Virus record (IMG/VR): IMGVR_UViG_3300037041_001875
Coordinates: 1,600 to 65,599 of that record
Length of the DNA stretch: 64,000 nucleotides
Strand: one strand, 5' to 3'
Origin: a virus
Taxonomy: Duplodnaviria > Caudoviricetes
This document shows positions 4,471 through 25,751 of the stretch, one piece after another. Numbering within the stretch: position 1 is the stretch's first letter; every line of letters begins with the position of its first letter. The notes under the pieces were generated by a model. It had not been told where the DNA came from, did not search any database, and saw only the letters and a program-made list of their open reading frames with translations. The position numbers were made by a program, and so were the translations under genes.

Positions 4471-4471
4471 A

Positions 4472-4714: not shown

Positions 4715-5116
4715 ATGAAAGAGAAACTATTTCGAGAGTACGGGATAAGCGAAACTAGCACGGACAACGATATAGAAAGGGTTTCTGAAATACTGGCAAT
4801 TGATTACGATATAATAGCTGAATATCGAAAGCACCGTAGAGAAGTATACATAAATCATGTACAATATGTCGTAACTGATCCGACTTGTGCCGATACACGA
4901 GAATATTTTAATTGCCTCGAAAAAGCGCTAGATCGAGCAATGGAACTTGCCATTGATCAAGCGGATACTGCCGATGAAATAACCGACCTTGATCAATGGG
5001 GCGACTCCATGGAAACCGGATGGGGAGTATGTCCAGAAAATGAAAGCGGCGCATACTGGCCACAAGTTCACGCTGAATTCGATGGTAAACGCATCGACAA
5101 ACTACCGTGGGAATAG
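4715..5116 (+). CDS. Acidic hypothetical protein
   Basis: GAAAGGACAACCAAATG start. Confidence 0.7.
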   Translation: MKEKLFREYGISETSTDNDIERVSEILAIDYDIIAEYRKHRREVYINHVQYVVTDPTCADTREYFNCLEKALDRAMELAIDQADTADEITDLDQWGDSMETGWGVCPENESGAYWPQVHAEFDGKRIDKLPWE

Positions 5117-5129
5117 AAAGGACAACCAA

Positions 5130-5573
5130 ATGAAAAAGCAGAAAGACAATTACAAAGTGATAGGACGTGGAAAAGCGGGTTGGCATGCGCGGGCTAAAAA
5201 TTTAAGCTCAAGCGGCGGTACACTAGAGACCTACATTGATCAAGCGGCCGAAAATTGTCTCGTTTACGATGCGGATAAAACCGACTATGATCTATTCGCA
5301 AAATTGATTATCGCCGGTCCTATGGTTGACGTAGACCTGCCTGAAAATACCGTTGACCGGTTTACGTGCGAGGATAGACTAACCGCCAAAGCCATGCTCC
5401 CCGGTTTTTCTGGTGGCTTTGAAAAACTGGCAAAAATGGCGATTGAAAATGAAAACTTTCAAGGTCTGGACAAGGTATCCATTGACGTTTTCGAAAGGTT
5501 ATTGCGACAATTACCGGGAATGAAGATCGGACGGGTGATCAACGGCAAAGTAGAATGGGAAAGTGAGGTTTGA
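5130..5573 (+). CDS. Hypothetical protein (start MKKQKD)
   Basis: Same 20-nt start context as the previous gene. Confidence 0.7.
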   Translation: MKKQKDNYKVIGRGKAGWHARAKNLSSSGGTLETYIDQAAENCLVYDADKTDYDLFAKLIIAGPMVDVDLPENTVDRFTCEDRLTAKAMLPGFSGGFEKLAKMAIENENFQGLDKVSIDVFERLLRQLPGMKIGRVINGKVEWESEV

Positions 5574-5576
5574 ATC

Positions 5577-6203
5577 ATGCGAACGCTAACCCGTGAATTC
5601 TACATAGCAAAAGACGGCCAAAAAGTAACGTCCAACAAACTGCCGGAAGAAAGTGCCGTCTGCTATATTTCCACAGCGGCAAGTGGTCGAGTGAGTGTCC
5701 AGTTTTTCATTGGAAAACAGAGTAAACCGGATAAGTACCTCGCCTACAAATCACGCGAATCAGCAAACACTGCAATCGAAGCTTTTTTTGATAATTTGGT
5801 ACGTGTTTACGCGTATAAACAGGAACAAAAAGAGCGACAAAAACTAGCGCGGCAAGCGGCAAAAGCTGAATTCGAAGGAACGATAGGATCTGTTTTTGTA
5901 GCGTCATGGGGCTATGACCAAACGAACGTCGACGCATACCAGATCACGGCCCGAATCAATAATCAAACCGTCGAGGTGGTTGAAATCGGTTTCGAGCACC
6001 TCCCCGAGGAAAGCAAAGGTTACAGCTCGATGGCCGAAAATGTTAAACCTTTACCGGTATCGGCAGAAAAAGCCGCAAAAATGCCAAAATTGTTGGCGCG
6101 CATTACCGCGAAGGACAGTATTCAAGTAGCAAACAAACGGAGCGCTGGCAACGCGGATTTATGGGACGGTGCGCGTAGTTATTACCATTCCTGGTATGCG
6201 TGA
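5577..6203 (+). CDS. Conserved phage hypothetical protein
   Basis: SWGYDQTNVDAYQI motif, which I recall from phage early proteins. Confidence 0.7.
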   Translation: MRTLTREFYIAKDGQKVTSNKLPEESAVCYISTAASGRVSVQFFIGKQSKPDKYLAYKSRESANTAIEAFFDNLVRVYAYKQEQKERQKLARQAAKAEFEGTIGSVFVASWGYDQTNVDAYQITARINNQTVEVVEIGFEHLPEESKGYSSMAENVKPLPVSAEKAAKMPKLLARITAKDSIQVANKRSAGNADLWDGARSYYHSWYA

Positions 6204-9267: not shown

Positions 9268-10062
9268 TCAAACCTTCGTGTACAACATGGGCTCGAGCTC
9301 CCGGAAGAGCCCGTGCGGCGGCTTCGGGTCGGGAGGTCCGATGCCCAGCAGGCCGTGTTGCTTGAGCGCCTTCGAAATCTCTGTGAAGGTATCCTCGACG
9401 ACCGATTCCTCGAGGTACATGAGCAGATGCCGGCAGAGCACGAGGTCATAGACCGCTGGCTCGGCGCCCCACCAATCGCCCGTTCTGGTCCGCACGTCGG
9501 CGATCCTGGCGTGGATGCGCTCCGCGAGCTCGGGAATGAGCCGCATACGGCTCCCACGGATCTCCACGAGGGACTTCCAAACCCTCGCCGTCAAGAAGGT
9601 CAGCTTGTTCAAATGCCTCTTGGGAAAGGCCGGGTTCATGGCATTCTTGACGCACTTGGGCGAGATGTCCAGGGCGTCAATCGTGATGTTCTTCGCCGTG
9701 GTGAACTGGTGCAAGAGCAGGGCAATCGTGGCGAGTTCATGCCCGTCGGAGCACCCAAGAGACAGAACTCGCACGCTCTCGCCGGACCGGATTCGGCAGA
9801 GAAAGTGCCGCTGCAAGGCTTCCCAGAACGTGTGATTTCGACCGAAGTACGTCGAGTGCACCAGGCCATGATCGGCCAAGTTCGGCATCTCTTGGTCAAT
9901 GTTCTCTCGGAGGTGTACTAAATAGGCCTTGGCCGTGGGGAATCCGCGAGAATGCGCATATTTTTTGATATGCCTCGCTGAGAAGTTTTTGACCACCGCA
10001 ATCTGAGCTCCAGTGTGCTCAACGAGAACGGCGCAGAACTGGGCATAAACCTTCTTTTCCAC
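9268..10062 (-). CDS. cheR: CheR-family SAM-dependent protein-glutamate methyltransferase
   Basis: STYFGRN, VLSLGCSDGHE, ALDIS, YDLVLCRHLLMY, LKQHGLLGIG match CheR motifs in order. Confidence 0.85.
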   Translation of the reverse strand: MEKKVYAQFCAVLVEHTGAQIAVVKNFSARHIKKYAHSRGFPTAKAYLVHLRENIDQEMPNLADHGLVHSTYFGRNHTFWEALQRHFLCRIRSGESVRVLSLGCSDGHELATIALLLHQFTTAKNITIDALDISPKCVKNAMNPAFPKRHLNKLTFLTARVWKSLVEIRGSRMRLIPELAERIHARIADVRTRTGDWWGAEPAVYDLVLCRHLLMYLEESVVEDTFTEISKALKQHGLLGIGPPDPKPPHGLFRELEPMLYTKV

Positions 10063-10771: not shown

Positions 10772-11599
10772 TCATCCTTTGCGCGTCAAGGCCCACCCTA
10801 TGAGGCCCCCCACCACGGCGAGGAGCACGAGGCCCCACCATCCTCGAGCCGAGCCGTGATCGATGTTGTTGAGGGCAAAATCTTGGGCCTTGGCGTTCTG
10901 TGCCGGGTCGGCGCGGAAAATCTCCGATCGGACGCGAGCGACGAGCTTCGAGAAGGCCTCGCCGTCGAAGGACGGCGCCGTGTAGTAACCGCCTGCGATG
11001 ATAGAATCCCAGTATCGGGCGTCGTACCCAGGCCCACCGGCAATCAAATACCTCGAGGCACTCTGGTAGCCGGCATTCTGTGAGGTCGGGGAGATGCGCG
11101 TCAGGAAGTCGTCTATCGCCTCTTTCCAGTTCTTGAACGCTCGCCACTGCTCGTCGGGCACAGGATAGGTGTTGCCGGCCGTGTCGACCTCTTGCGTACC
11201 CATCTTGTAGTAGCCGTCAGGCCACGTGCCGCGCTTCGCTCCCCAAGCGTTGTAGTGCCAGACCTTCTGGTCCCAACCACTTGAGAAGATCGCGTGTGCG
11301 GTCATGCGAGCCCGCTGGTCGGCGTTCGTGATGCCGTAGCGGGATAGGAGCGCGTCCATGTTCAGCGCGAGCTGTTGATGGTTGCCGACTTCTCCCCAGG
11401 GTGTTCGTTGTGCTTGTAGGAGCTCACCCAAGAGGATACCTCCATAGACCAGGCCAGAGAGCAGACTCACCATGAGGAAAGAGTTGATCCATATAGATAC
11501 ACCTCTCCCGCGAGACGCTAGTCTACCCTTGAGCTTTTCCGCCGTCAAGCTCAAAAAACCTTTTTTTGAATTCGAGGTAGTCTCTTCTCGGGTTCGCAT
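10772..11599 (-). CDS. GH73/FlgJ-like glucosaminidase-fold protein with N- and C-terminal TM helices
   Basis: HAIFSSGW, YNAWGAK, TQE, WRAF, GGYYTAP motifs. Confidence 0.75.
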   Translation of the reverse strand: MRTREETTSNSKKGFLSLTAEKLKGRLASRGRGVSIWINSFLMVSLLSGLVYGGILLGELLQAQRTPWGEVGNHQQLALNMDALLSRYGITNADQRARMTAHAIFSSGWDQKVWHYNAWGAKRGTWPDGYYKMGTQEVDTAGNTYPVPDEQWRAFKNWKEAIDDFLTRISPTSQNAGYQSASRYLIAGGPGYDARYWDSIIAGGYYTAPSFDGEAFSKLVARVRSEIFRADPAQNAKAQDFALNNIDHGSARGWWGLVLLAVVGGLIGWALTRKG

Positions 11600-12128
11600 T
11601 GCACGTGTCCAGTTCCATGGGTCGGACCATGAGACCGTATCTCTGGCCGATGTACTTGTTTAGGAGCACCCGCCCGTAATCTCGAAAAGGCCCCTCGGGG
11701 GCTAAACTCGTGATTTCACGAGCCATTTGTAGGTCATCGGCATCGTTTATGCGCTGGATTTGTTCTTTATGCACTGGCATGCATTTATATTTATTCCAGA
11801 TCAATTTCTGCCAAATAGACTCATAATCATCAAGGTTTACACCAAGCTGCTTGAGGTAGCGCTTCACTGGTCGGGTGACGTCGCCGACGTAGGTCTCATG
11901 GGCGTCGTGTAAGAGGGCGGCGAGCTGGAGCTCGTCAGGCACCAGGCGAGACACCTCCAACGAGTGCCGCGCAACCGAGATGTGCGTCGACAAGTGGCCA
12001 TTGAACCGCAGGATTCCCGCTAGACTCCATGCAATATCTTCTATATCAATGTCTTCCATTTTGGGATCACTTAAGTCTACCCAAACACCAGAAGACACCC
12101 CTAGCCAACATGGCTCAGTTGAACTCAT
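11523..12128 (-). CDS. HD-family phosphohydrolase (YfdR/YfbR-like nucleotidase)
   Basis: DIAWSL...RFNGH...SVARHS...ALLHDAHETYVGDV...P.K. Confidence 0.88.
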   Translation of the reverse strand: MSSTEPCWLGVSSGVWVDLSDPKMEDIDIEDIAWSLAGILRFNGHLSTHISVARHSLEVSRLVPDELQLAALLHDAHETYVGDVTRPVKRYLKQLGVNLDDYESIWQKLIWNKYKCMPVHKEQIQRINDADDLQMAREITSLAPEGPFRDYGRVLLNKYIGQRYGLMVRPMELDTCNANPRRDYLEFKKRFFELDGGKAQG

Positions 12129-12592
12129 TTAGAAATTCCCCATAACATACCAAAGGTTATCGTTCCAGCGGCAAGTAGCCCTATGCCACCCCACTTTAGC
12201 CCATTTTTGATTTTTCGAATCCTTTCTGCTCGAGCATATTCCTTTCGCTGTTCACCTACTAACGCTTGTAACCTATTAATTTCCAATTGGCTCGCTTCCA
12301 ATTGGCTCGCTCTTATTTCAGATGCTTGCCCTACAACGGTCAATTCTGCTTTAGTAGTATCAAGTAAAACATTCAATTCGTGATTTACATAATGGAAATG
12401 TTTGGCAATTTCTATCCAAATGACAATTTTTCTAAATTCTTCGGTAGGATAACACTCGCGCAATCCAGAAGGTGTCTTTATCGTGTACCCATCGGGTATT
12501 TCGGGCAGCTCGTCGGCCTTCAAGCTCCATGCGAAGGCTATTAGAGCCCAGAAAATTAGTCCGAGGATTAGATCCTTCAAGAAATCAATCAA
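12125..12592 (-). CDS. Exported coiled-coil protein with C-terminal TM (spanin-like candidate); likely TTG start 12592
   Basis: Signal-like N-terminus, coiled coil, C-terminal hydrophobic helix; AAAGGA RBS. Confidence 0.55.
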   Translation of the reverse strand: MIDFLKDLILGLIFWALIAFAWSLKADELPEIPDGYTIKTPSGLRECYPTEEFRKIVIWIEIAKHFHYVNHELNVLLDTTKAELTVVGQASEIRASQLEASQLEINRLQALVGEQRKEYARAERIRKIKNGLKWGGIGLLAAGTITFGMLWGISK

Positions 12593-12968
12593 CGTCCTTT
12601 CGAGATAAACGATCTTTGAGTTCCTCGTGGGTAGCGTTAGCCATTGATTTCCTGGTCTGTTCGAAGTCGGCTCGGGCATTTTGAATCACCTTCTCAACAA
12701 TTGCCGCCTTGTCCGCCAAGGTTTTCTGTTGTCCTTTCAGCTTTTCGATGGATTTGTCGCAGGATTTATTTAGGCTGTCAAGCGGTGCATTCTTCGCTCG
12801 CTCGGCGTAGTTATCCGTCAACCTGCTCGAGTTTAGCATCCACCAAAAACCTGCCACGGTGAGAAGGGCAATCCACGGAAGAATCAATAAAAGTATCACC
12901 CACCATTTTTTGTTACGGAAAAGGCTTGTGGGATCATATAACGCCTGGTCCCATATATTTTTCAGCAT
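12585..12968 (-). CDS. Membrane-anchored coiled-coil protein (i-spanin-like candidate)
   Basis: N-terminal TM, periplasmic coiled coil. Confidence 0.55.
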   Translation of the reverse strand: MLKNIWDQALYDPTSLFRNKKWWVILLLILPWIALLTVAGFWWMLNSSRLTDNYAERAKNAPLDSLNKSCDKSIEKLKGQQKTLADKAAIVEKVIQNARADFEQTRKSMANATHEELKDRLSRKDVD

Positions 12969-12979
12969 TCTGGGAGCTC

Positions 12980-13246
12980 CTACGCTTGGTGCCTCGTGGA
13001 CGTGGAATCTAGAGCAGTGACGCTTGCCTCATCTTCCACGAGTTCGCCTATTATATGCTCACGGCACATTACCCATGAGCGTCTATCGGCCGAGGTATCC
13101 CCTCGAGAAGCAATATCAAACAGAGCACACCACGTCCCACATTGGGCAGCGCCGTCACCGTAAGGGCAATTGAGCTTGCGGCCATCTTCGGCCACGAGAA
13201 CCTTAGTGGTCTTGGTATTCTTTCGGACTAGGCTAACCTTTTTCAC
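12980..13246 (-). CDS. Small Cys-rich protein
   Basis: CPY...CGTWCALF...C; coupled to cysH. Confidence 0.6.
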   Translation of the reverse strand: MKKVSLVRKNTKTTKVLVAEDGRKLNCPYGDGAAQCGTWCALFDIASRGDTSADRRSWVMCREHIIGELVEDEASVTALDSTSTRHQA

Positions 13247-13866
13247 GGTTTCACCTCATGGATTCCACATTCCTGCCGCTCGCCGGCCCAGCGGCCAGAG
13301 CGTTCGTCGCTCGAGGTCGGCAACGCGGTGCAAGGACGGCACCCGATAGATCGGTATCCCTGGTCGTGCAACGATTGAACAGGCACGTCGTTATCTCGAA
13401 TGTATTTCCAGCATTCCTCGCTTGTCCAGTTTAGCATTGGAGCCAAACGGATCTTGCCTTTCCGGTCTGTCTCAATTTCCTTCGAGTCTTTGCGCGTCGA
13501 GGCTTGGTCCCACCGCAGGGCAGAAACCCACGCCTGGTAGGGCTCGAGCGCGTACCATAAAGGAAGCACCTTTCGCTCATTGCAGCACTCTTGCGCAGGC
13601 GGGAGGTGAGTGCCTTCCGTAGGACCGATCCAACGCAAGGCCAAATCCCATTGCTGGTGCATACGGTTGGCAAAGGCCACTGTTTCACTGAACAGCATGC
13701 CCGTGTTGATCGAAAGGACCGGGACGTGCTCCCAGACCTTGCGGGCATGATCGAGCAGAACCATCCCTGAATAGCCCCAAGCCGTCGTGAAGATTACCTT
13801 GTCATCGTACATATCACGATAGAAGTTCAGAGTCTCACGCAGCTTGTCAGACTTCTCTGTCACCAT
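13243..13866 (-). CDS. cysH: APS/PAPS reductase (CysH family, Fe-S type)
   Basis: NTGMLFSET, CCNERKVLPL, GYRSIGCRPCT, ERSGRW, C-terminal ECGIH. Confidence 0.92.
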   Translation of the reverse strand: MVTEKSDKLRETLNFYRDMYDDKVIFTTAWGYSGMVLLDHARKVWEHVPVLSINTGMLFSETVAFANRMHQQWDLALRWIGPTEGTHLPPAQECCNERKVLPLWYALEPYQAWVSALRWDQASTRKDSKEIETDRKGKIRLAPMLNWTSEECWKYIRDNDVPVQSLHDQGYRSIGCRPCTALPTSSDERSGRWAGERQECGIHEVKP

Positions 13867-14630
13867 GGCACTGGACCTTTCAGAGCTCCGGTGAGGTTGA
13901 TCACCGGGGGTCGCTCTGGATACCCATACTTCTTAGCCCAATGCCACCATCCTGCAAGGCTCACTGCGGCCTCGAGGCCTGGGGGAGGTAGGGAGCTCAC
14001 GAGGCTCCGTAGATGCTCCGCGGCGCGGTAAATCTCCGATGCCGAGACCTCGATAACCTCTGGGAGCTCGGGCGCGTCGGCAAGAGCAGGTGCCCAACGG
14101 GGGATGAGCTCGGCCTCGGGGCGCACGGGAACAACCGTGGTGCTTCGAGCTGGCCAGACCGCTTTGACTGCGGCGCAACCGTATCCGCCGCCCGTGGCCT
14201 GGAAGTAATGGTGCGAGGGATTGTCGCGGTAGACCTCATGGATTTGCTGCAATATCTCTCGAGCCATAATCTGGTGAGCAATCATTTTCAATTGATTGTT
14301 ACTCCCAGCAAACAAAAATGTCCTTCCCTTATCGGACATTTCGTATTCGTCCATAACTTGCTTTATGACACGAATACGAGGAACTTTATCGTCCCATGTG
14401 TATACTATAACATCTAAATCTTTGCATATGCTAGTTATAGCCTCGCCAGTATTACCACTAGTCGCCACAATAACCGTTCTCACGCCTTGTAAGGCCGCAA
14501 AGTGCTTCACGGCCATAGCTTCGCGGTATTTAAATGATCCCGTTGGGAGCATATAGTCACATTTAAAATAGACCATGCGTCCGCAACTATCATCTGATAG
14601 AATTAAAGGGCTTCTTGTTATTTCTTCCAT
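13860..14630 (-). CDS. Fold-II PLP enzyme (threonine-synthase family), cysteate-synthase-like
   Basis: PTGSFK (PLP Lys), ATSGNTG, HYFQATGGG, INLTG. Confidence 0.8.
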   Translation of the reverse strand: MEEITRSPLILSDDSCGRMVYFKCDYMLPTGSFKYREAMAVKHFAALQGVRTVIVATSGNTGEAITSICKDLDVIVYTWDDKVPRIRVIKQVMDEYEMSDKGRTFLFAGSNNQLKMIAHQIMAREILQQIHEVYRDNPSHHYFQATGGGYGCAAVKAVWPARSTTVVPVRPEAELIPRWAPALADAPELPEVIEVSASEIYRAAEHLRSLVSSLPPPGLEAAVSLAGWWHWAKKYGYPERPPVINLTGALKGPVPW

Positions 14631-15442
14631 GCTGCCCCCAAGAATTGTGCACCAGGGAAATGATTCATTTCAATGACTACATACTTGTTATTCTCATCGA
14701 AGGTTCCATCAACAGACCATCGGTGGTTCTTACAACCCTTAACCTTTGGCGCAACTTCTTTATTTATCTGCTCCACCACTTCGGGTATACCATCAATCCT
14801 ACCGCCAAAATGAGCAACGTTGAGAGTCTTTTGTAGTACTACCTTTGTACTTTTAGAGTCAAGATTGCTCAAATCCATATCTTCCGTGTCCCTTACAAAA
14901 CCATCTAAATCTACCAAGATATATTTTGGTTTTTTCCAGCCAGCAGTAGAAATACCTTCAAGGTTAAAATACACTGGCGTCATTGTTATAAAGTCCACAC
15001 AGTCTTGCCCAATGAATCTAATAATGGGCGGGCATCGAGTATCATCCGTGAACTTGTGCAGTTGATCGGCCGGGTGAATCCATTCTTCGACAAACCACGC
15101 ACGAGAAGATAGTAATTTTTTGCGGGTATTTAATTTTATTCTTCTTATCTTATCTAGTTCAGAAGGTAAATCACTCGCTGAAAATAAACAGTCGTATGAA
15201 AAAATCATAAACCCTTCAGCAGTCTTCTCTAACAGAGCTACGCCACTATTCTGCCGACCACACCGCGGTTTCCAAACATATTTACCTATAGGCGCTTTTA
15301 TTAACCTATCTATATTGTAGTAAAACTCGCCTGGATTAATTAAGGTCGCAGGATAAGCAAGTGACGTGTTATCACTTAACCACTGCTTAGTGAAAATCTT
15401 GTCCCAAAACTCTTTAGCATTTAAAATCATTACTTCTTCCAA
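14618..15442 (-). CDS. ATP-grasp ligase, paralogue C
   Basis: DKIFTK, VWKP..G....GV, FVEEWI, PIIR, SVDG, VIEMNHFPG. Confidence 0.85.
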   Translation of the reverse strand: MEEVMILNAKEFWDKIFTKQWLSDNTSLAYPATLINPGEFYYNIDRLIKAPIGKYVWKPRCGRQNSGVALLEKTAEGFMIFSYDCLFSASDLPSELDKIRRIKLNTRKKLLSSRAWFVEEWIHPADQLHKFTDDTRCPPIIRFIGQDCVDFITMTPVYFNLEGISTAGWKKPKYILVDLDGFVRDTEDMDLSNLDSKSTKVVLQKTLNVAHFGGRIDGIPEVVEQINKEVAPKVKGCKNHRWSVDGTFDENNKYVVIEMNHFPGAQFLGAAWKK

Positions 15443-16254
15443 ACAACACCTAAGAAGGGTGTTCCTATGGCAGAGTTCATTTCAATTATAACAAACTTGT
15501 TATCTTTATCAAATACGCCGTCAACAGACCAACATTTATTGTGGATTAACTTCAGTTTTGGGCTAATCTCACGATTCACTTGGTCAATAATCTCTCGAAC
15601 ACCTTCAATTTTATGCCCACATAAATCGGTGTCTATACGCCTCTCCACAACAGACACTAGAGTTTTCTTGTCTGCGTTAGACAGGTCCATTTCATCGGTG
15701 TGCCTAACAACGCCATTGAAATCTAGCCATAAATACTTTCGATGGTCCCAACCAAAAGACGATATGCCGACCTCGTTAAAGTATACCGGCGAAATCACTA
15801 CGAAATGAACGGCGCTTCGTCCACAGATACGAATAATCGGCGGGCAACGCATATCATTTGTGAACTTGCCAAGTCTTTCGTGCGGTTTAACCCATTCCTC
15901 GACAAACCAGTTTCGGTGATCTTTAGCTTCTTTAGCTTCTGAAATAGTTAATCGTTTTATTCTAGTTAATTCTTCAATTGTGTCCTGTAAAGGCATAACT
16001 GTATCAGATGGGAATATTTTATATCCGTCAACAGTTTTATTTATAAGAGCGATTCCCCAGCCTTTCCGGCCAAAACAAGGCTTCCAGACGTACTCACCTA
16101 CAGGCAAATCTTCCAATTTTTTAGCAACCTCGTTGAAAAGGGCTAATTCTACTATAGTTTTAGGATAGGCAAACGACGTGTTTTCACTTAGCCACTGCTT
16201 AGTGTAGATCTTATTTGCAAATCTCTTCGGTACTATTTTCAAATTGATAATCAT
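15430..16254 (-). CDS. ATP-grasp ligase, paralogue B
   Basis: NKIYTK, VWKPCFGRKGWGI, FVEEWV, PIIR, SVDG, IIEMNSAIG. Confidence 0.85.
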   Translation of the reverse strand: MIINLKIVPKRFANKIYTKQWLSENTSFAYPKTIVELALFNEVAKKLEDLPVGEYVWKPCFGRKGWGIALINKTVDGYKIFPSDTVMPLQDTIEELTRIKRLTISEAKEAKDHRNWFVEEWVKPHERLGKFTNDMRCPPIIRICGRSAVHFVVISPVYFNEVGISSFGWDHRKYLWLDFNGVVRHTDEMDLSNADKKTLVSVVERRIDTDLCGHKIEGVREIIDQVNREISPKLKLIHNKCWSVDGVFDKDNKFVIIEMNSAIGTPFLGVVWKK

Positions 16255-17141
16255 GGCCGTCTCAATGCGTCAAAATTGTGCAAGTGCTTCACATTTGGAG
16301 CATGTTCTATTTCAATACAAACAAAATCCACTGAATCATCTTTGTTATGCCTATAGACTCCATCAAACGCAAACAAGGCGTTAGGGCTCATTACCGCACA
16401 CACCTCAATTTTTATAGCCTCTATAATCTTATCAAAAAAGGGTAAAACCATCCCCGTAACGTCTTTCACCGTTCCATAATTCTCGATTGACCAAGGCAAA
16501 TCGTTTGGTATGTCTGGTCGGGTCTGTAAGAGCTCGCCCTTGTAGTTGAAACAGATGCGCCGTGCACCGCCCTGCAAGGTTCCGCGCCCTCGAGAAGCTT
16601 TCGTAGGTATGTGGAGCTCCCCAAAGTGGAAATCTCCGCGACTCATGATGATCCTCACGAGCGGATTGAACGGAGCATCATATCCAAGAGTTTTTAGTTC
16701 TTCTGGTGCCGGCGAAACATATTCCTCGACTATCCATTTATGTGCAGAGGGCACTCTTGGCATATCCGAAGAAATATCAACAAACAGTTCCGCGGCGTTG
16801 AGTAGTCTTAGATTAGCGTCTCTAAAACCCAAATCGTTAGGCTCTTTCCAAACCATTCGAACGCCTCTGGAACGCGATAGATTAATCGGTTTTACTACCA
16901 CCCAACGCTCTGTAGGACAACTAGAACTGACTAGCCACGTACATAAATCTGCCCATGTAGCTGAGCAGACTAATGTAGGCGGAACTTGAAATGACGTGTT
17001 ATTTAGAAGCCAATTCTTAGTCCATACTTTATTCCAAGTGGATCGCAGTAATTTCTTTTGAGGCGCAGCTATATTCTTTTTGCGCTCTCTAGGTGTTATT
17101 CGAACAACATGGGTCACCGTAGTTATGACAACTTTACCCAT
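16251..17141 (-). CDS. ATP-grasp ligase, paralogue A (ATPgrasp_ST / alpha-L-glutamate-ligase-like); likely start MGKVVI
   Basis: VVKP..LSRSRGV, IVEEYV, PLVRII, HIPTKASRGRGTLQGGA, FDG, IEIEHAP. Confidence 0.85.
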   Translation of the reverse strand: MGKVVITTVTHVVRITPRERKKNIAAPQKKLLRSTWNKVWTKNWLLNNTSFQVPPTLVCSATWADLCTWLVSSSCPTERWVVVKPINLSRSRGVRMVWKEPNDLGFRDANLRLLNAAELFVDISSDMPRVPSAHKWIVEEYVSPAPEELKTLGYDAPFNPLVRIIMSRGDFHFGELHIPTKASRGRGTLQGGARRICFNYKGELLQTRPDIPNDLPWSIENYGTVKDVTGMVLPFFDKIIEAIKIEVCAVMSPNALFAFDGVYRHNKDDSVDFVCIEIEHAPNVKHLHNFDALRRP

Positions 17142-17526
17142 CTTTTGGCTTCTTTCGTGGTGTTTTGGAGCGTACAATATGCCGAGGTGTATTCTTACCT
17201 TCTGCGGCCGCTTTGGTCTGGCGAGCTTTCTTCTCTTTTGCCCTACGCTCAAAGGGTCCAGTTCCATGCTCTGACATGAACTTGCCAGGGGAACTGGACA
17301 AAACTTGATTGTCACGTACCTCTTCCATCCCGCAAACATCACACGAATTCTCGCCCATCAAGCGATTGCCACACTTCTCGCACGATTTTGCGCCCATCCA
17401 ACATACAAAGCACAGGTCACCCACATGGGTGTCCCTGATTGGAGCACTATGCCGGTGACATTTCCTGCATGCCCTTATCGTGAGGGGGTAATGCCCCCAG
17501 CTCTTACTTGTAAAGGTTGTGGTCAC
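17134..17526 (-). CDS. Basic multi-Zn-finger protein
   Basis: Four CxxC pairs, K/R-rich tail. Confidence 0.6.
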   Translation of the reverse strand: MTTTFTSKSWGHYPLTIRACRKCHRHSAPIRDTHVGDLCFVCWMGAKSCEKCGNRLMGENSCDVCGMEEVRDNQVLSSSPGKFMSEHGTGPFERRAKEKKARQTKAAAEGKNTPRHIVRSKTPRKKPKDG

Positions 17527-17794
17527 GGTACTCTTTCAGCGCCACAAAAACAGTGTCGGCGACCTCCCGCATTACCACGCCCTTGGCGCTATGCCAAAGC
17601 TGTGCGGTGATCTGCTCTTGCGATGAGCCCAGGGCGCTCGCAATGAGAATTCTAAGTGCGGCCGATATATTAAGCGATCCGCCCTCGTTTACAAGCCCGT
17701 TATGCTCGGCAAAGACCTCAATTCGTTGGATTGTTTCAGCGTCCAATCTAACTGCAAGTGCTCGTGTTTGTTCTTTATTCATGTTGATCCCCAT
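17504..17794 (-). CDS. Ribbon-helix-helix DNA-binding protein
   Basis: LAVRLD...IEVFA...NISAALRILI. Confidence 0.65.
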   Translation of the reverse strand: MGINMNKEQTRALAVRLDAETIQRIEVFAEHNGLVNEGGSLNISAALRILIASALGSSQEQITAQLWHSAKGVVMREVADTVFVALKEYRDHNLYK

Positions 17795-17842
17795 ATCACA
17801 GTTTTGGAATGTTTACAAGGACTGAAAATAGTAAACTGTTTT

Positions 17843-20353
17843 TTATTTTGGAACGTGGAGATCGAGGTGGTTGAAGCCTATTTTGCCTTCGACCTCAAAG
17901 GGCATGCAGTACGTTTTGCCGGTGATAGGCGAGGCCAGCTTCTTCGAGCAGCGTAACGAGTTCATGCAATCCTCGAGGGCTTGCTGAGCATAGTCGATGG
18001 TGACCTCGGCGCGGAGGTCATCATGAATCTGCATAATTGGCCAAACTCTTGTATGATAGTCGCCTTTCTCTTCCAATAGGCGTAACCATCTAATGGTAGC
18101 CGCATCTACAATATCTCCCGCGCCGCCTTGAACTGGGTGGTTCGTGGCCTCGGTGTCAGGCACTCCGCCCAATGGCCAGCGGCGTCGACGGCCGAGCCAT
18201 GGCGTTCGGAGCTCGAAGGTTCGGTTGGCAATTTCAGTGACGTAAGCAGAATACTCGTTGACATTTTTGTATTTTGCCCGTTTGCGGGCCTGCATGGTCT
18301 GAACTTCTTGGAACGTGATCCCTGGAACATCCTCGCGCACATTCTCAAATAAGGTCTGCGGACCAGCTCGGTAAATGTCACCGAAGGTCACGGGCTTCGA
18401 GTTCGTCCTCAAGAGCTTGCGCTGGTCCGTGCTCGCTCGATTCCAAATCTCCCCGAAGTAGACCTCGGCGAACATAGAGTGCACGTCGGTCCCGTTGATG
18501 AAGGCCTCAATGAGATCCTCTTGGCCCGCGAGCAACACCGATATGCGCAGCTCGAGCGCCGCGAAGTCCACTGAGATGATGCAGCGCCCCGGAGCGGGCA
18601 CGAGCATACGTCGCATGGACCTCGGCCAGTTCTGCACAGCAGGCTTTGTGCCGAAGCGTCCCGAAGGCGTCGCGGTCTTGTTCCAGCGCGTGTGAATGCG
18701 CCCATCTTTGCCGACCTCCTGACCCAAACCGTCGATGTACGTCGAGAACAATTTCGTCTTGGTTCGGTAGGCCTGCAAGAGCTCGACGAACGGGTGATCT
18801 CTAAACTCAAAAAGGCTCGCGGCATCGGTCGAAAGCTGTCCGCTCTTCGTGACCTTCTTGGGTATCAAATTGAACTGGTCGACGAGCACCTTTTGAAGCT
18901 GCGGGGGGCTGTTCGGATTGAAATCTCGACTCCCCACGAGAGACCATATATTCTCTTTTAGGCATGCAATACTCTCACTGAATTCCTTATGCAGCACAAG
19001 GCGCGCAGCTTCGTCGACTCCGAGGCCGACCTTCTCCCAATCCATGGCGTAGCGCGTGATAATCCGATCCGTCTCGTACACGTTCAGAACGTTCTCACGA
19101 CGCATCTCTTGGCGCAATTTGTCATGCAGTAGAATCGTGTTCGCGGTGTCTGCACCGTTGTAGTAGAGCAGCGCGGGGATGTCCTCGTCGCTCACGTTTA
19201 TGAACCGCTTATCGTAGTATTCCTTCCAGGGCTCGACCGGGAAAAATTGGGTCGCCACAGCTTGCAAATCGTGGGGCGTCTTTGGGTAGATCGCATGGTG
19301 CTCAAGGAGAGTGTCTTCGATCTTCCCGGCGATCTTGATCTGCATCATTCGCTCGATGATCGGGACGTCAAAAGCCATGTTATGGAAGACCCACGTTCTC
19401 TCTGGATCTTGGAAAGCCGCTTTAAGAGCTCTCCAAGAGGAATGCCAGTCTTCCGTGGTGAAATACGAACGCAACCCTGGGCATGGAATAGCCACGGCGA
19501 AAGGCTTCTCTTCGCCTGTCTCGTCATCATAGATGAGACGCGCCAAACCTACCGTCGTGATCCCGCATTCGCGCACGTCTAGGCCATCGGTCTCGAGGTC
19601 CACGGCCACAGGTTCCGAAGGCGACTCGAGCACTCGTTGAACAGCTTCGAAGGTGAAAGCCTCGACCACGGGCTGGCGCAACGCGATCTTCTCGTTGGCC
19701 AAGAGGTGTGCCTTCTCGACGTCAGCAATGAATAGATCCAACCATACGTGCCTTGCCGGCGAGCGCAGCATAGCTGCGGGATGGATGGTCGACACCACAA
19801 GCGTTCGCCATTCCTCTTCAGCAAAGGCCTCGGGCCGCAGTTGCGGCTCCACTATCTTCGGGTCAAAGTCAACAGGAAACTGAGCAGTCTCGGGCGCCAA
19901 TACCTCGAGGGGATACTTGATACTAAAGTCTTGCCAAGTAGTAGCTCCTCGAAACTTCTCGACGCCTTTGAGGCCGGTCGTCGACTGCAATGCAATGCCC
20001 CCCAAGGTCAAGATCGCCCGTGGCTTGATCTCGACAATGTTGGCCTCGAGCTCCCCCTGGCAACACTCCCGAGCAATCTTCATTGCGGCATCCGATGGTT
20101 TGGTCCCGCCGCTGAAGTTGCACCGAATAGCATTCGTGATATGGGTCGCCTCGATTGACGTGTGCAGATAGTCCAGGACCGTCTTCAAGATGTGTCCCGA
20201 GGCCCCCACGAACGGAACTCCCCGCTTGACCTCTTCGCGGCCCGGGCTCTCCCCGATGACCATCAAGTTGTTCCACGCGACGAGGGGGTGTTTGTCCATG
20301 ACTTCCAATCCATTCTCGAAGAATGGGCAGGTAATCTGATTACATGGCTTCAT
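17843..20353 (-). CDS. polA: Family A DNA polymerase with N-terminal family-4 UDG-like domain and 3'-5' exonuclease
   Basis: GESPG..E...G.PFVG.SG and HPAA (UDG); DLET, HN..FD, YN..D (exo); DFAALELR, KPVTFG.IY, QIHDD (pol). Confidence 0.93.
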   Translation of the reverse strand: MKPCNQITCPFFENGLEVMDKHPLVAWNNLMVIGESPGREEVKRGVPFVGASGHILKTVLDYLHTSIEATHITNAIRCNFSGGTKPSDAAMKIARECCQGELEANIVEIKPRAILTLGGIALQSTTGLKGVEKFRGATTWQDFSIKYPLEVLAPETAQFPVDFDPKIVEPQLRPEAFAEEEWRTLVVSTIHPAAMLRSPARHVWLDLFIADVEKAHLLANEKIALRQPVVEAFTFEAVQRVLESPSEPVAVDLETDGLDVRECGITTVGLARLIYDDETGEEKPFAVAIPCPGLRSYFTTEDWHSSWRALKAAFQDPERTWVFHNMAFDVPIIERMMQIKIAGKIEDTLLEHHAIYPKTPHDLQAVATQFFPVEPWKEYYDKRFINVSDEDIPALLYYNGADTANTILLHDKLRQEMRRENVLNVYETDRIITRYAMDWEKVGLGVDEAARLVLHKEFSESIACLKENIWSLVGSRDFNPNSPPQLQKVLVDQFNLIPKKVTKSGQLSTDAASLFEFRDHPFVELLQAYRTKTKLFSTYIDGLGQEVGKDGRIHTRWNKTATPSGRFGTKPAVQNWPRSMRRMLVPAPGRCIISVDFAALELRISVLLAGQEDLIEAFINGTDVHSMFAEVYFGEIWNRASTDQRKLLRTNSKPVTFGDIYRAGPQTLFENVREDVPGITFQEVQTMQARKRAKYKNVNEYSAYVTEIANRTFELRTPWLGRRRRWPLGGVPDTEATNHPVQGGAGDIVDAATIRWLRLLEEKGDYHTRVWPIMQIHDDLRAEVTIDYAQQALEDCMNSLRCSKKLASPITGKTYCMPFEVEGKIGFNHLDLHVPK

Positions 20354-21977: not shown

Positions 21978-22700
21978 TTATCTGCCCTCAATTTTGGCGC
22001 AGGATTCGAGGCCCAATATTTCTGCGAAGTCGTCGTAATGAGGCGACGGCCCTATACGGGCGAATCCAGCATTGTTTGCGTGAGCTCGAGCGAGGCGCAT
22101 GCGCGCTGGCCACGTGCCAAATTTGCGCCCGTGGACGTACCATTCGAGGCCCTTAGTTCCCATGTCCTTCACGTCACTGTACAATAGCAGGTCTGCGTTA
22201 CCTGGAAAGAAATTCTTGGAGTCGCCCTTGAGAGTGAAGGTGCGCTCCTTGTCCGAATGGCAAATCCAAATTGAATGAATCGGCCATTTTTTGATGGTTG
22301 TCATAAGATGCACGAAGAAGCTCGTAAATTTGCCCCAGTGCTCCCACTCGAGTTTGTTGACCTTGAACTCCTTCTTAATCTCGTCTTCGAATAGGAGCTG
22401 TGTTATCGTTAGGTTGTCCAACACGAGAGTCTTACAAGCCAGCTCGCCGCTCTCAATGGCTTTGCCGAGCGCTTCGAGTTGCACTTTCAAGTCTTCCATG
22501 CTCTTGAAAAAGACCACGGGCAGATTGAAGTCAGCCAAGGTCCGCATTTCTCCCCGAGCAATGGTAGGCACCAGGAACACCGGATAGGGCCATGTCCCAG
22601 CGAAGTGCGTCTTACCGGCGCCATTCTCACCGTACAATAGAACGTTGTACGTTGCATCTGATAGCAGATCCGACGTGCTGGACAATCGCAAATTACCCAT
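21978..22700 (-). CDS. AAA_24 / Sak4-like ATPase
   Basis: LLYGENGAGKT Walker A, LVLDNLT Walker B, WICH. Confidence 0.85.
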   Translation of the reverse strand: MGNLRLSSTSDLLSDATYNVLLYGENGAGKTHFAGTWPYPVFLVPTIARGEMRTLADFNLPVVFFKSMEDLKVQLEALGKAIESGELACKTLVLDNLTITQLLFEDEIKKEFKVNKLEWEHWGKFTSFFVHLMTTIKKWPIHSIWICHSDKERTFTLKGDSKNFFPGNADLLLYSDVKDMGTKGLEWYVHGRKFGTWPARMRLARAHANNAGFARIGPSPHYDDFAEILGLESCAKIEGR

Positions 22701-23596
22701 TAAAATTCGCTCCGATCCTTCTTACGCAAGCCGTCCATCGAGTCTCTAAGGCACATGCCCATGTATTCGCACGTCCGGTTCCACATGACGCAATTGTGCA
22801 TGCGCTGTGGCCACTTCCCGAAGTGGAAACACTCTTCCAATTCCCAGGAAATTTTCTTCATGGATCTTTCCCAGGCTTTGAGCATCTCGTCAGGAATGAC
22901 CACCTCTTCTTGGTAAATCATGACCTCGCGTTCATGCTTTACGATCTGGTCAACCATGAAGGCTCGCAAGTCACCACGATCACACTTTTTCCAAAGCCAA
23001 ACTTGCCCCAGAAATTGGGGGTTCAGCTTGTAGCTGTCAAGCAGTACGGTAGACCTTCTCGCCGCGGTCTTGTGCTCGCAGATGGTCGGCCGGCCCTGGA
23101 CTTGGATGACCGCGTCTAGGCGTGCCGAGTAATGGAAGGGCTTCTTCACCTCGAGCGCGAGCTCGACGTGCAAAATGTCTGACTCCTGTATCTTGAGCAC
23201 GCCCCCCGGACCCCAAAAGCGCGCCCATGCCGATAACAGTCGACGTGCCTCGTTGGCAGTCACGGGCGCCACGGTAGAAGCCAGGTCGACGACATACCAG
23301 AGCGAAGCCCAGAAGGCCTCGTCACCATCCTGCCACGCGAGCAGCGCTTGGGCAATGGCCTCGTGAACCAGTCCGCCGAGTTCGAGTGCAGGAAAGAGCT
23401 CGACCGTGGTCAATCGCTTCACGAACTGATAGAAATACCTCTTCGGGCAGCGAACGAACTCGGCCCACTTGGAATTTCCCATGAGCGAAGGCCCACCGGC
23501 CAAATCTTCTTTTCGAAAAGCAGTTTGCCAGCTCGGCTCTTGCGCGAGCAGGCCACCTTTGACGTCAACGCCTGAAAAGTCTACTCCAAATTTCAC
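22700..23596 (-). CDS. Cas4/RecB-like PD-(D/E)XK exonuclease (likely GTG start 23596)
   Basis: CPKRY, G.LVH, RLD...EHKT, Q...Y-type motif, C-terminal C...CEY...C. Confidence 0.85.
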   Translation of the reverse strand: MKFGVDFSGVDVKGGLLAQEPSWQTAFRKEDLAGGPSLMGNSKWAEFVRCPKRYFYQFVKRLTTVELFPALELGGLVHEAIAQALLAWQDGDEAFWASLWYVVDLASTVAPVTANEARRLLSAWARFWGPGGVLKIQESDILHVELALEVKKPFHYSARLDAVIQVQGRPTICEHKTAARRSTVLLDSYKLNPQFLGQVWLWKKCDRGDLRAFMVDQIVKHEREVMIYQEEVVIPDEMLKAWERSMKKISWELEECFHFGKWPQRMHNCVMWNRTCEYMGMCLRDSMDGLRKKDRSEF

Positions 23597-23979
23597 TATG
23601 CCCTCGGCCCGTTTCCTGCCGGAACGCTCACTATGAGCGGCTGATCCTTTTGTCCCTCGTGTGTGTGTGTCCACGCGGCCTCGACACCCATGCGAACAGT
23701 TGTGGCTAAGAGATCACCGATAGCCTGCAACTGGGCTTGGAGCTCTTCCCGTGTCTCGACGGTCTGCACAACGGCCGCGGCGACAAAGCGAGCAGCAGCG
23801 TAGCCCAAAGCGACCAAACCATGCAACGTCGGCATCTCGCCGCCAAATGCTTTAATCAGTTCAGTCGTCGCGGTCATCGAAAATTGATTTAGGCCAATAG
23901 CAGAAGGAACACCATTCTCGGGCGTTTTCGCCATCAAATACCTAGTAGCTTCAGCCACCACTTGCTTTGTGCTAGTCAC
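23596..23979 (-). CDS. Hypothetical protein
   Basis: Packed in operon. Confidence 0.55.
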   Translation of the reverse strand: MTSTKQVVAEATRYLMAKTPENGVPSAIGLNQFSMTATTELIKAFGGEMPTLHGLVALGYAAARFVAAAVVQTVETREELQAQLQAIGDLLATTVRMGVEAAWTHTHEGQKDQPLIVSVPAGNGPRA

Positions 23980-24352
23980 TTAGCATCTCCCTTTCGTTGT
24001 TAAATGCGATGTAAACGAATTTACCAATTTTCTTTCGGCACTCTTTACAGCAATCCGACAAATCCGCCAGTGACCTTCCAATATTTATCGTGACCGATCC
24101 ATACCATCGGGCGAAAGCGAGGCACTCCGCTGCGCTCAGGGGGCTATCGAGCTTTCCGCCTCTTGCCATGATCTCGTCCTCGAGCTCCTTATGCCGTGCG
24201 TAAATACTTGAAATGTCTATTACTTGCTGCAACAGGTACTTTCGAATATCTCTTCCCTTGCGGAGATTTGCCACGAGCCGATGGATTTCGCAATGCTCCC
24301 GACACAGATGCCGAGTACACATGATCCTTGGATTGGCCATCCACATACGCAT
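23972..24352 (-). CDS. Pyrimidine-dimer DNA glycosylase / T4 endonuclease V-like
   Basis: MRMWMANP..MC..HL..EH.EIH, RHKEL..E...RG. Confidence 0.78.
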   Translation of the reverse strand: MRMWMANPRIMCTRHLCREHCEIHRLVANLRKGRDIRKYLLQQVIDISSIYARHKELEDEIMARGGKLDSPLSAAECLAFARWYGSVTINIGRSLADLSDCCKECRKKIGKFVYIAFNNEREMLSD

Positions 24353-24381
24353 CTCTACACCTCCCCAAGACACCGAAGGTG

Positions 24382-24852
24382 TCATGTTGGCGTCACCGTT
24401 ATGTTTGGGTCTTCATAGAGCAGTCTTCTTGAGAGCTCCTCGACGACCTTCTCGTGCATCTCGTTTGCTTCCAAGTCTGTCTCGCGCTCGCATTCTGGGA
24501 GCTTCCAAGGGCTTTTAAACCTAACAGGTTTTGTAACGTCAATCTCCCAATAAGGATCATCCCACAGGGCCATAAAAGCAGCAGTTTCATAGTAATGATC
24601 AACCCCAATTTTAATCGGTTCAGTACAACCAAATGGAGAATCAAAATCTATTTGGTTTCCCACGGTAGAAATTACTATACGTTTTTCTCCGTATTCTAAC
24701 AAGGTGTTTCGCCTAAAACCACATTTTGTAGCATTACAAAAATGCCCTGCCCAGCCTCGCTCAGTCCTTACAATTAAGCCTGGACGGTGTATTTCGTTGT
24801 CAGGTTTAGTGCCACAGTCAAAAAAGTAGTTAGGCATCTTCTTTGCCTTCAA
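24382..24852 (-). CDS. Phage hypothetical protein
   Basis: ERGWAGHF...C.FRRNTLLE; packed in operon. Confidence 0.7.
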   Translation of the reverse strand: MKAKKMPNYFFDCGTKPDNEIHRPGLIVRTERGWAGHFCNATKCGFRRNTLLEYGEKRIVISTVGNQIDFDSPFGCTEPIKIGVDHYYETAAFMALWDDPYWEIDVTKPVRFKSPWKLPECERETDLEANEMHEKVVEELSRRLLYEDPNITVTPT

Positions 24853-25106: not shown

Positions 25107-25751
25107 CTATCGCACCCGTAGGTGTACTTTGTCTGTTACCAGTCTTGCAAACTGTATTGTCTTATCGCCCTCTTTCAATGCTACTAGTAATGCTCTTTTA
25201 TCCACTTCAAGCTTGACACGAAGGAACTTCGGAGGCCAGTCCAAATCAATCATGTTCGGTTTCTTCAATACCGAAAATGTAAATGGGTTTGTACCATCCC
25301 AAAGGTGTTCCATCCCTTCAAGAACACAAGAATTAATGAACTTTTCCTCGTTGTCCACGGCCACGCTATCAGGGCTCTTCTGCACTGCGGCCGTGAAATT
25401 TAACGTCTTGAGCTTGTCAATGCTAACCGTGATCATTGCTCCCAAGACGTAGTCTTCCAGGCGAGCTGCTTGATTTTTCAAGACCTTGGCTCGGTCGGCG
25501 AAGGTCTTTGACCTCTCGGCCCAGACCCCGGCTTGCGCCTCGGCTTCTCGAGCGACCCAAAGACACCGGTCGACCTTGTCGGCGAGGCTCGTCTCGCATG
25601 CGGTGAGCTCCTCTTCGAGCTCGGGCGTGACTTCGCCCTCGAGGTCGTCTATGGAGTGAAGCACCTTCCGCAGATCGTCTATGATTTCGGTTAAGGTTCG
25701 CTTCTTCGGTTTCGGTTGCTCGATGATTTCCACAGCTTCCATATTAAGCAC
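25107..25751 (-). CDS. Siphovirus Gp157-like protein
   Basis: Acidic N-terminus, coiled coil, KSPDSV, EVDKRALLVALKEG, terminal HLRVR. Confidence 0.78.
   Translation of the reverse strand: MLNMEAVEIIEQPKPKKRTLTEIIDDLRKVLHSIDDLEGEVTPELEEELTACETSLADKVDRCLWVAREAEAQAGVWAERSKTFADRAKVLKNQAARLEDYVLGAMITVSIDKLKTLNFTAAVQKSPDSVAVDNEEKFINSCVLEGMEHLWDGTNPFTFSVLKKPNMIDLDWPPKFLRVKLEVDKRALLVALKEGDKTIQFARLVTDKVHLRVR

Follow-up and report, generated by a model that had tools for sequence, protein, structure and literature searches.

A seven-gene viral operon that may build and attach an unusual sulfur-containing amino acid

The stretch of DNA analysed here, referred to as the window, comprises 64,000 nucleotides (positions 1600-65599) of the 65,599-base IMG/VR record IMGVR_UViG_3300037041_001875, a virus of the Caudoviricetes. 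Its minus strand carries, at 12980-17526, a unit of seven genes in which a sulfite-producing reductase, an enzyme dependent on pyridoxal 5'-phosphate (PLP) and three ATP-grasp ligases are encoded together. We propose, tentatively, that this operon builds an unusual sulfur-containing amino acid and attaches it to an acceptor, by way of cysteate and its ligation. The genes form a real viral multi-enzyme module, and tagging with cysteate is a plausible but far from certain outcome. The genes, from the first to the last of the unit, are as follows.

17134-17526, minus strand: ZnR, a zinc-ribbon-like, cysteine-rich protein of 130 residues and the first gene of the unit; its stop overlaps the G1 start
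16251-17141, minus strand: G1, an ATP-grasp protein of 296 residues; its ATG at 17141 overlaps the stop of the upstream ZnR reading frame
15430-16254, minus strand: Gb, an ATP-grasp protein of 274 residues (ATPgrasp_ST, 27.2 bits, E 2.9e-6; AlphaFold2 model)
14618-15430, minus strand: Ga, an ATP-grasp protein of 270 residues; its ATG overlaps the Gb stop
13860-14630, minus strand: a minimal fold-type-II PLP enzyme of an orphan clade, 256 residues (PF00291, 62.9 bits; AlphaFold2 model)
13243-13866, minus strand: CysH, a thioredoxin-dependent iron-sulfur (Fe-S) reductase of adenosine 5'-phosphosulfate (APS) or its 3'-phosphorylated form (PAPS), 207 residues (NF002537, PF01507, phrog_424); its start overlaps the stop of the PLP enzyme gene
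12980-13246, minus strand: orf88, a protein of 88 residues with four cysteines and the last coupled gene; its GTG start overlaps the CysH stop

All six gene junctions (ZnR/G1, G1/Gb, Gb/Ga, Ga/PLP, PLP/CysH and CysH/orf88) are start/stop overlaps. An initial annotation of the window had described five overlapping, co-oriented genes at 13243-17141, and these are present, on the minus strand. The span was too narrow, since ZnR (17134-17526) and orf88 (12980-13246) are joined to the five by overlaps of the same kind. The motifs named at that time are likewise found in the translations: CC, CxxC and ECGIH in CysH, and SFKYREA, HYFQATGGG and NLTG in the PLP enzyme. The list of open reading frames (ORFs) starts Ga at a TTG at 15442; the ATG at 15430 is the more likely start, because the Gb/Ga junction reads TAATG and the Ga orthologue in the related contig L003 is likewise 270 residues long.

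Compared with the related contigs L003, L005 and L006, every operon gene has a ratio of non-synonymous to synonymous substitution rates (dN/dS) of 0.04-0.21; all seven are under purifying selection and, hence, are real genes. A promoter and terminator scan of 12000-18200 gave signals no stronger than those in shuffled sequence, and found no minus-strand terminator within the unit. One metatranscriptome run contains five short contigs (144-215 bases, with at most two differences each) that fall on CysH (two contigs), the PLP/CysH junction, Ga and the ZnR/G1 junction; carry-over of DNA is possible, expression is not claimed, and the parts left uncovered mean nothing. Base composition is uneven across the unit. 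G+C content is 39-45% in the three ligase genes (Gb 39.6%, Ga 39.4%) against 52-56% in the adjacent PLP enzyme and CysH genes, the window as a whole being at 51.7%. Islands of 40-46% G+C occur in the genome (about 52% G+C) at 2001-6000, 14001-18000, 28001-30000, 46001-50000 and 54001-56000, and the ligase genes make up one of them.

CysH, first assigned from its motifs as an APS reductase, is borne out as an Fe-S type APS/PAPS reductase. The protein passes NF002537 (178.1 bits, cut-off 154) and PF01507 (121.9 bits, cut-off 22.5), and among solved structures it is closest to the Fe-S APS reductases 7lhr (E 1.2e-30) and 2goy (E 1.2e-24). Its CC, CxxC and C-terminal ECG(I/L)H motifs align with both structures: the Fe-S and catalytic cysteines are kept. 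It remains below the narrower models TIGR02055 (APS_reductase; 155.2 bits, cut-off 235.3) and TIGR00434 (148.7 bits, cut-off 165.1). The PADLOC matches of CysH are weak (BrxP, 27.5 bits, and QueC), and we read them as a sign of the shared PP-loop fold and not of a role in defence; the other six operon proteins have no PADLOC match.

The PLP enzyme scores 62.9 bits on PF00291 (PALP), above the gathering cut-off of 35. Its AlphaFold2 model (mean predicted local distance difference test score, pLDDT, 86.1; predicted template modelling score 0.85) shows it to be minimal, with about 50 residues fewer than CysK, and yet a complete enzyme of fold type II, whose catalytic furniture looks intact. The predicted functional sites are as follows.

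PLP enzyme (13860-14630, minus strand), predicted sites: Schiff-base lysine K34; asparagine loop S58-G59-N60-T61; glycine loop G147-G149-G151; C-terminal N245-L246-T247-G248

An alignment of 13 family members, reaching down to 37% identity to the window protein, has as its invariants K34, S58-G59-N60, the glycine loop (G147, G149 and G151), P181-A182, D185, G218-L219-E220 and N245-L246-T247-G248. T247 of the NLTG motif is presumably the partner of the pyridine N1, and TSGNTG is taken here to be a CysK-like carboxylate loop. The hidden Markov model (HMM) alignment of the family with the solved cysteate synthase 9k3c consists of short local matches that include SFK..EA and YFQAxGxGxG. Of the three motifs that the initial annotation named in the PLP enzyme, these two therefore align with the solved enzyme. 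A regular-expression search finds the YFQAxGxGxG variant of the glycine loop in one of 71 distant profile hits. That protein (P0076) has ThrC (136 bits) and cysteate_syn (94 bits) as its best models, both below cut-off, and can be described as ThrC/cysteate-synthase-like.

The family is extremely rare. Among 5.8 billion proteins, just 10 clusters at 90% identity belong to the PLP enzyme. When 1.84 billion representatives were searched with a profile, seven came up at E <= 1e-30, followed by a gap to the next at E 4.5e-8; a family fragment of 100 residues (P0033, E 1.5e-10) lies within this gap (1e-45 to 1e-8). Full-length members have 255-267 residues, with one of 327, and two further matches are fragments (191 and 100 residues). 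An alignment scan of one genome for each of 185,579 prokaryote species did not detect the family, and the same scan found no relative of the G1 family. Neighbours in the Protein Atlas are generic PALP clusters only. In BFVD, three viral proteins match the PLP model at E <= 0.001, of which two are named, from Megaviridae and Pithovirus, and the third carries no name; neither of the two named rows is a phage protein. Judged by these searches, the enzyme belongs to a tiny orphan clade.

Scans of viral contigs, run with the PLP protein and with alignments of the PLP and G1 families, yielded only one other contig, and in GenBank phage records neither the operon DNA nor the Gb protein has a match. 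The readable context consists of one IMG/VR contig and eight metagenome contigs, in which the PLP enzyme is 84-89% identical to that of the window. ORFs were examined in six of these loci, the three shortest contigs (L009-L011) being left out. In all six, the PLP enzyme gene is adjacent to cysH and an ATP-grasp gene lies directly upstream of it, and ZnR precedes G1 in each of the four loci long enough to show it. Three further DNA runs, belonging to three studies, also contain contigs that bridge operon genes. A more distant virus probably links the PLP enzyme and G1 as well, because a PLP homologue (P0009, 49% identical) and a G1 homologue (P0119, 50% identical) both list a longest contig of 62,951 bases. 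The search for the same neighbourhood elsewhere, proposed as a check at the outset, therefore gives a recurrence in every readable related contig, confined to close relatives. Translational coupling, the conserved neighbourhood and purifying selection together uphold the view that this is a conserved module and not a lone cysH.

The ligase set is the variable part of the operon. In related contigs the number of ATP-grasp genes is three or four, and these genes fall into four orthogroups, one of which is missing from the window.

L003 6534-7376, L004 1312-2157, L005 5994-6839, L006 2678-3523: Gc, the fourth ATP-grasp orthogroup, about 281 residues, between G1 and Gb

The order is G1-Gb-Ga in the window, G1-Gc-Gb-Ga in L003, and G1-Gc-Gb in L004, L005 and L006, from which Ga is absent. 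Since the presence of Gc and Ga differs between loci, the set is swapped among near-identical viruses. In BLAST searches of databases, G1 has 21 clusters of homologues, which reach down to 44% identity, while Gb has seven, Gc eight and Ga two. Values of dN/dS are 0.06-0.08 for G1, 0.04-0.07 for Gb, 0.19 for Ga and 0.08-0.10 for the PLP enzyme.

The description of the three upstream genes as ATP-grasp paralogues stands. Ga and Gb are 46% identical (E 6e-93) and G1 is 28% identical to Gb over 145 residues (E 3e-8). G1, at 24-28% identity to the others, is a divergent paralogue with a strongly conserved loop PTKASRGRGTLQGGARR and an IEIEH metal motif. Four residues (K58, E119, D245 and E258) are invariant in 22 paralogues and orthologues; we take them to be the ATP-binding lysine, the hinge glutamate and Mg-binding residues. 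None of the three reaches the gathering cut-off of PF14397 (ATPgrasp_ST, 31.4 bits): Gb has 27.2 bits, Ga 13.1 bits and G1 no match, and the family is matched by four of 18 G1 relatives at E <= 0.01 (best E 3.9e-8). Weak NCBIfam matches are rimK_rel_E_lig for G1, and MptN and RimK for Gb, and the Protein Atlas neighbours of Gb are ATPgrasp_ST clusters (score 0.94). A search of Gb against PDB sequences gave no match at E <= 10. Its AlphaFold2 model (pLDDT 80.8) confirms the ATP-grasp fold for Gb, the one paralogue with a structure model, and is nearest to D-Ala-D-Ala ligases (Ddl) and to LysX/ArgX (Foldseek E 1.8e-7; VIA Z 12.3, root-mean-square deviation 3.6, 187 residues aligned). Other structural matches include cyanophycin synthetase and DcsG, the VIA Z score running from 12.3 to 10.2 across the 50 rows shown. 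From these sub-threshold family matches, the Atlas neighbours, the G1 relatives and the Gb model, the ligases are rightly called ATPgrasp_ST/RimK-like. They appear to lack the N-terminal pre-ATP-grasp (substrate) domain, because Gb aligns only from about residue 87 of Ddl and about residue 70 of LysX onward.

Two short cysteine-containing proteins frame the unit, and neither has a Pfam or PADLOC family. ZnR contains pairs of cysteines and a tail rich in lysine and arginine that ends in KDG, which is invariant in all five sequences; its dN/dS is 0.10-0.12. It is a candidate acceptor or carrier for the ligases. LysW carriers are small Zn-ribbon proteins with an acidic C-terminal tail that ends in glutamate (EDWGE-type) and is bound by an ATP-grasp partner. 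ZnR departs from this definition, having 130 residues and a basic tail ending in KDG. A complex prediction for G1 and ZnR scored 0.00; the fold of ZnR itself is uncertain, and the result counts neither for nor against binding. At the other end, orf88 is kept in L003 (dN/dS 0.12).

Taken together, these genes suggest a four-step pathway. CysH, reduced by a host or viral thioredoxin, would turn host APS or PAPS into sulfite, as expected from homology. The PLP enzyme may then form an aminoacrylate from an activated serine (O-phospho- or O-acetylserine) and capture the sulfite to give L-cysteate; this step is proposed because the enzyme is coupled to CysH and its fold matches are of the beta-replacement type. 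The ATPgrasp_ST/RimK-like ligases, lacking an N-terminal domain, would use ATP to form acyl-phosphates and then amides, so that one unit of the amino acid, or a short chain of them, might become attached to a larger acceptor. The parallel with LysW/LysX and S6/RimK makes it tempting to speculate that the best candidate acceptor within the operon is the co-translated ZnR with its KDG C-terminus. The variable short paralogues Ga, Gb and Gc would tune which units, or how many, are added.

The strongest argument for cysteate is architectural. Given that the only product of CysH is sulfite, and that cysH starts inside a gene for a beta-replacement-type PLP enzyme in every relative, a sulfite-capturing synthase would be the simplest use of this coupling. 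The missing N-terminal domain, the similarity to ATPgrasp_ST, RimK and LysX, and the co-translated ZnR hint at a macromolecular acceptor, possibly ZnR. In its most specific form, the proposal is that a new minimal class of PLP synthase makes L-cysteate from APS-derived sulfite, that RimK-like ligases attach one or more residues of cysteate, or a mixture of acidic residues, at the C-terminus or on the lysines of ZnR, and that the set of Ga, Gb and Gc determines the composition of the tail; this version is a long shot. Modification of a DNA base was considered as an alternative target and rejected, as no hydroxymethylase or kinase genes were seen among the ORFs scanned (20 outside the operon), which is a weak argument.

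Several results weigh against the cysteate pathway. The PLP enzyme passes no curated NCBIfam model. On the cysteate synthase model TIGR03844 it scores 21.8 bits where 324.9 are needed, over model positions 94-154 of about 398 only, and is about 150 residues short of that family; in the genome search, cysteate_syn gave 16.5 bits. Its best NCBIfam match is threonine synthase (TIGR00260, 39.3 bits against a cut-off of 167.1, residues 19-86 only), and on the cysteine synthase models it has 22.2 bits (TIGR01139, cut-off 350.95) and 25.2 bits (TIGR01136, cysKM, cut-off 344.15). Among solved proteins, the family profile finds the aspartate racemase 5ybw (E 5.1e-8) and then serine racemases, followed by cysteate synthase 9k3c (2.3e-6) and ThrC (4.1e-5). 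These matches are carried mainly by residues 12-78, and in this sequence comparison aspartate and serine racemases outrank cysteate synthase as relatives.

Comparison of the structure model does not separate the reaction types either. O-phosphoserine sulfhydrylase (OPSS), CysK, CapA1 (9k2p), CBS, CysM, SbnA, TrpB, ThrC and aspartate racemase all align over 244-251 of the 256 residues at Z 22.6-23.6. OPSS, CysK, CapA1 of Capnocytophaga, CBS and TrpB head the VIA rows (Z 23.0-23.6); ThrC and aspartate racemase follow within one Z unit, which amounts to a tie. CapA1, a cysteate synthase, reaches Z 23.4 (root-mean-square deviation 2.8, 244 residues aligned) and is one of about 50 entries tied at Z 22.6-23.6; it has no sequence match to the PLP family at E <= 0.1. 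The HMM and structure comparison suggested for this enzyme at the outset has thus placed it in none of the cysteate synthase, ThrC and CysK families and ended in a structural tie. Its description as cysteate-synthase-like holds for the fold type and the two motifs shared with 9k3c, and fails for family membership (21.8 against 324.9 bits). The label 'cysteate synthase' is a reasonable guess from context, namely the translational coupling to CysH, and not a statement of family membership.

The remaining objections concern the operon as a whole. All readable loci are close relatives from one shallow clade and, because their PLP enzymes are 84-89% identical, the co-occurrence is essentially one observation. 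Because the ligase genes have 39-45% G+C and the PLP enzyme and CysH genes 52-56%, separate origins are suggested, and the module may have been put together from two acquisitions whose roles are unrelated. The tail of ZnR is basic, unlike the acidic tails of LysW or S6. The chemistry of the pathway itself is a prediction from genes, homology and models.

The contrast in base composition also counts in favour of the most serious competing explanation, in which two unrelated sets of cargo genes lie side by side. CysH would supply sulfite, host sulfite reductase would convert it to sulfide and the PLP enzyme, as a CysK-like cysteine synthase, would raise the level of cysteine, while the ligases act on a separate target, such as a glycan or protein to which they add glutamate. 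Both cysH and cysK are listed as viral auxiliary genes in the preprint text of Kieft et al. (bioRxiv 10.1101/2021.01.05.425418); the operon CysH belongs to phrog_424. The asparagine loop TSGNTG and the top structural rows (CysK, CysM and OPSS) fit a sulfhydrylase, and the number of ligase genes varies while PLP-CysH is constant. However, the PLP enzyme reaches only 22-25 bits on the cysK and cysKM models (cut-offs of about 345-351), and the CysK-type SVKDR motif is present in only three of the 71 distant profile hits. It does not look like a captured host cysK, because no cellular relatives were found in one genome per species of the 185,579 scanned. In addition, translation of the ligases and of the PLP enzyme is physically coupled, because the Ga stop lies inside the PLP enzyme gene. 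We regard two independent cargo sets as unlikely, yet far from negligible.

Other products can be imagined if all the genes act together. The outcome could be a small peptide that contains cysteine, for instance a thiol resembling glutathione or some other product of L-amino-acid ligases, with the PLP enzyme supplying cysteine or another beta-substituted alanine and each of the three ligases adding one residue. The structural neighbours of Gb do include the L-amino-acid ligases BacD/YwfE and RizA, a Streptomyces ATP-grasp peptide ligase and DcsG; several paralogues would suit stepwise addition; and DcsD/DcsG of D-cycloserine synthesis (3x43/3x44 and 6jil in the fold lists) provide a precedent for a CysK-fold enzyme feeding an ATP-grasp enzyme. 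Such a peptide is nevertheless improbable, given that the viral ligases appear to lack the N-terminal domain used by small-molecule ligases, that their nearest sequence family is ATPgrasp_ST and not GshB or the L-amino-acid ligases, and that three to four ligases among near-identical viruses would be odd for a fixed peptide. The PLP enzyme might instead act as a racemase or dehydratase and provide Ddl-like ligases with a D-amino acid or keto acid, CysH then being an independent auxiliary gene. This would agree with 5ybw (E 5.1e-8) and the serine racemases as the best PDB sequence matches of the profile, and with D-Ala-D-Ala, D-Ala-D-Ser and D-Ala-D-Lac ligases as the best structural matches of Gb. 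The racemase matches, however, rest mostly on the generic lysine and asparagine-loop region (residues 12-78), Ddl does not stand clear of other ATP-grasp matches (Z 12.3 to 10.2 over the 50 rows shown), and the invariant overlap of the PLP enzyme gene with cysH would be left unexplained. We consider a racemase or dehydratase very improbable. The cysteate pathway, tentative as it is, makes use of that overlap.

The setting of the operon is that of a nearly complete genome (94% by the CheckV estimate). Window positions 1-2136 are an identical copy of 61865-64000, and bases 1-1599 of the record map from window position 60266 onward. The genome unit is therefore about 61,864 bases, either with a direct terminal repeat of about 3.7 kb or as a circular genome assembled past its start; IMG/VR labels the record 'linear', despite the repeated ends. 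At least 60% of the sampled words of the stretch are found in seven sequencing runs (one possibly the source), five of which are labelled sediment metagenome and two metagenome; runs with small shares of these words were disregarded as a guide to habitat. The operon is part of the replication-side block and closely follows, on its downstream side, a family-A DNA polymerase gene (17843-20353), whose best GenBank phage match is only about 25% identical, with no close relative there. Other recognisable genes are the following.

9268-10062, minus strand: CheR-type S-adenosylmethionine-dependent methyltransferase (PF01739, 73.7 bits)
10772-11599, minus strand: glucosaminidase-like protein (21.3 bits), downstream of the operon
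11523-12128, minus strand: HD-domain YfbR-like 5'-deoxynucleotidase (25.4 bits, just under cut-off), downstream of the operon
22700-23674: PD-(D/E)XK nuclease of the replication and repair block
23972-24385: pyrimidine-dimer glycosylase of the same block
25107-25751: Gp157-like protein of the same block
26048-27688: SNF2 helicase of the same block
27789-29054: DUF3987 protein of the same block
33517-34104, plus strand: weak match to a transglutaminase core (PF01841, 21.0 bits, under the cut-off of 23), at the head of the structural block
56547-56903, plus strand: thioredoxin with the active site WCEFC (PF00085, 67.4 bits), 40 kb away from the operon

The thioredoxin could serve as a reductant for the viral CysH. 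Transglutaminase-like proteins accompany RimK-related ligases in some bacterial systems. The CheR family, like the ATP-grasp ligases, acts on carboxylates (those of protein glutamates), and no second chemotaxis gene was seen among the ORFs scanned. Two predicted membrane proteins are encoded between the operon and the YfbR-like and glucosaminidase-like genes.

When a virus carries cysH, the usual interpretation is that the gene simply enhances sulfur assimilation by the host. This operon suggests that activated sulfate may be diverted into a dedicated product other than cysteine, since its cysH is firmly tied to variable amide ligases and to a PLP family that is nearly absent elsewhere. If the product is cysteate or a related compound, the PLP enzyme would represent a third, minimal type of cysteate synthase, and the operon the first viral pathway for a sulfonated conjugate. 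If ZnR is the acceptor, protein tailing of the RimK/LysX type would extend to viruses, and a sulfonyl-tagging or carrier-protein system based on ZnR would be virus-encoded, with no cellular counterpart. Even on a conservative view, the 256-residue PLP enzyme marks a lower size limit for fold-type-II enzymes and is tractable for biochemistry.

Literature searches, which did not extend to supplementary files, found no described viral example, in keeping with the initial annotation. They returned nothing joining cysteate synthase with ATP-grasp enzymes, nothing naming ATPgrasp_ST or PF14397, and, for CapA1, nothing relevant among the matches listed. In the passages retrieved, cysH, phage and ATP-grasp are mentioned together only as unrelated genes, and the main text of a preprint survey of viral organosulfur genes (bioRxiv 10.1101/2021.01.05.425418) does not mention ATP-grasp or cysteate. 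Each part belongs to a known superfamily. Their combination is undescribed, as are the orphan clade of PLP enzymes and the variable set of ligases; such a unit would extend viral sulfur auxiliary metabolism into a ligase pathway.

With known cysteate synthases, both ThrC-type (TIGR03844, 9k3c) and CysK-type (CapA1, 9k2p), the viral enzyme shares the type II fold and, with 9k3c, the aligned SFK..EA and YFQAxGxGxG motifs. It has 256 residues against 398-435 in the ThrC-type enzymes and 333 in CapA1, and its proposed chemistry would use up sulfite from the neighbouring gene; we know of no cysteate synthase that is linked to CysH. As far as they are described in the text consulted (PMC11211663), the known enzymes feed coenzyme M or sulfonolipid synthesis and not ATP-grasp ligases. 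The LysW/LysX-ArgX carrier system and RimK-S6 glutamylation resemble the viral unit in that an ATP-grasp gene likewise stands beside a small Zn-ribbon gene, and LysX/ArgX (3vpb, 3vpd and 5k2m) are among the best structural matches of Gb, while the RimK and MptN family matches are weak. In contrast to LysW, the viral ZnR has 130 residues and a basic tail ending in KDG, and the viral ligases appear to be without an N-terminal domain. The 'sugar-transfer associated' ATPgrasp_ST ligases (PF14397) are the nearest sequence family of Gb, yet at 27.2 bits against 31.4, and no glycosyltransferase was seen among the ORFs beside the operon.

In the DcsD/DcsG pair, a CysK-fold beta-replacement enzyme makes a non-protein amino acid and an ATP-grasp enzyme processes the product. 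Both appear in the fold lists of the viral proteins; there is no sequence-level relationship, and the pair is bacterial, with a single ATP-grasp enzyme and without CysH. The phage cysH auxiliary gene (phrog_424) and the Fe-S APS reductases belong to the same family as the operon CysH, with the same CC...CxxC and ECG(I/L)H motifs and, by homology, the same dependence on thioredoxin, the operon protein being shorter (207 residues) than the solved APS reductases (252-275 residues). What sets it apart from a lone phage cysH is its translational coupling to the PLP enzyme and, through the PLP enzyme, to three ligases.

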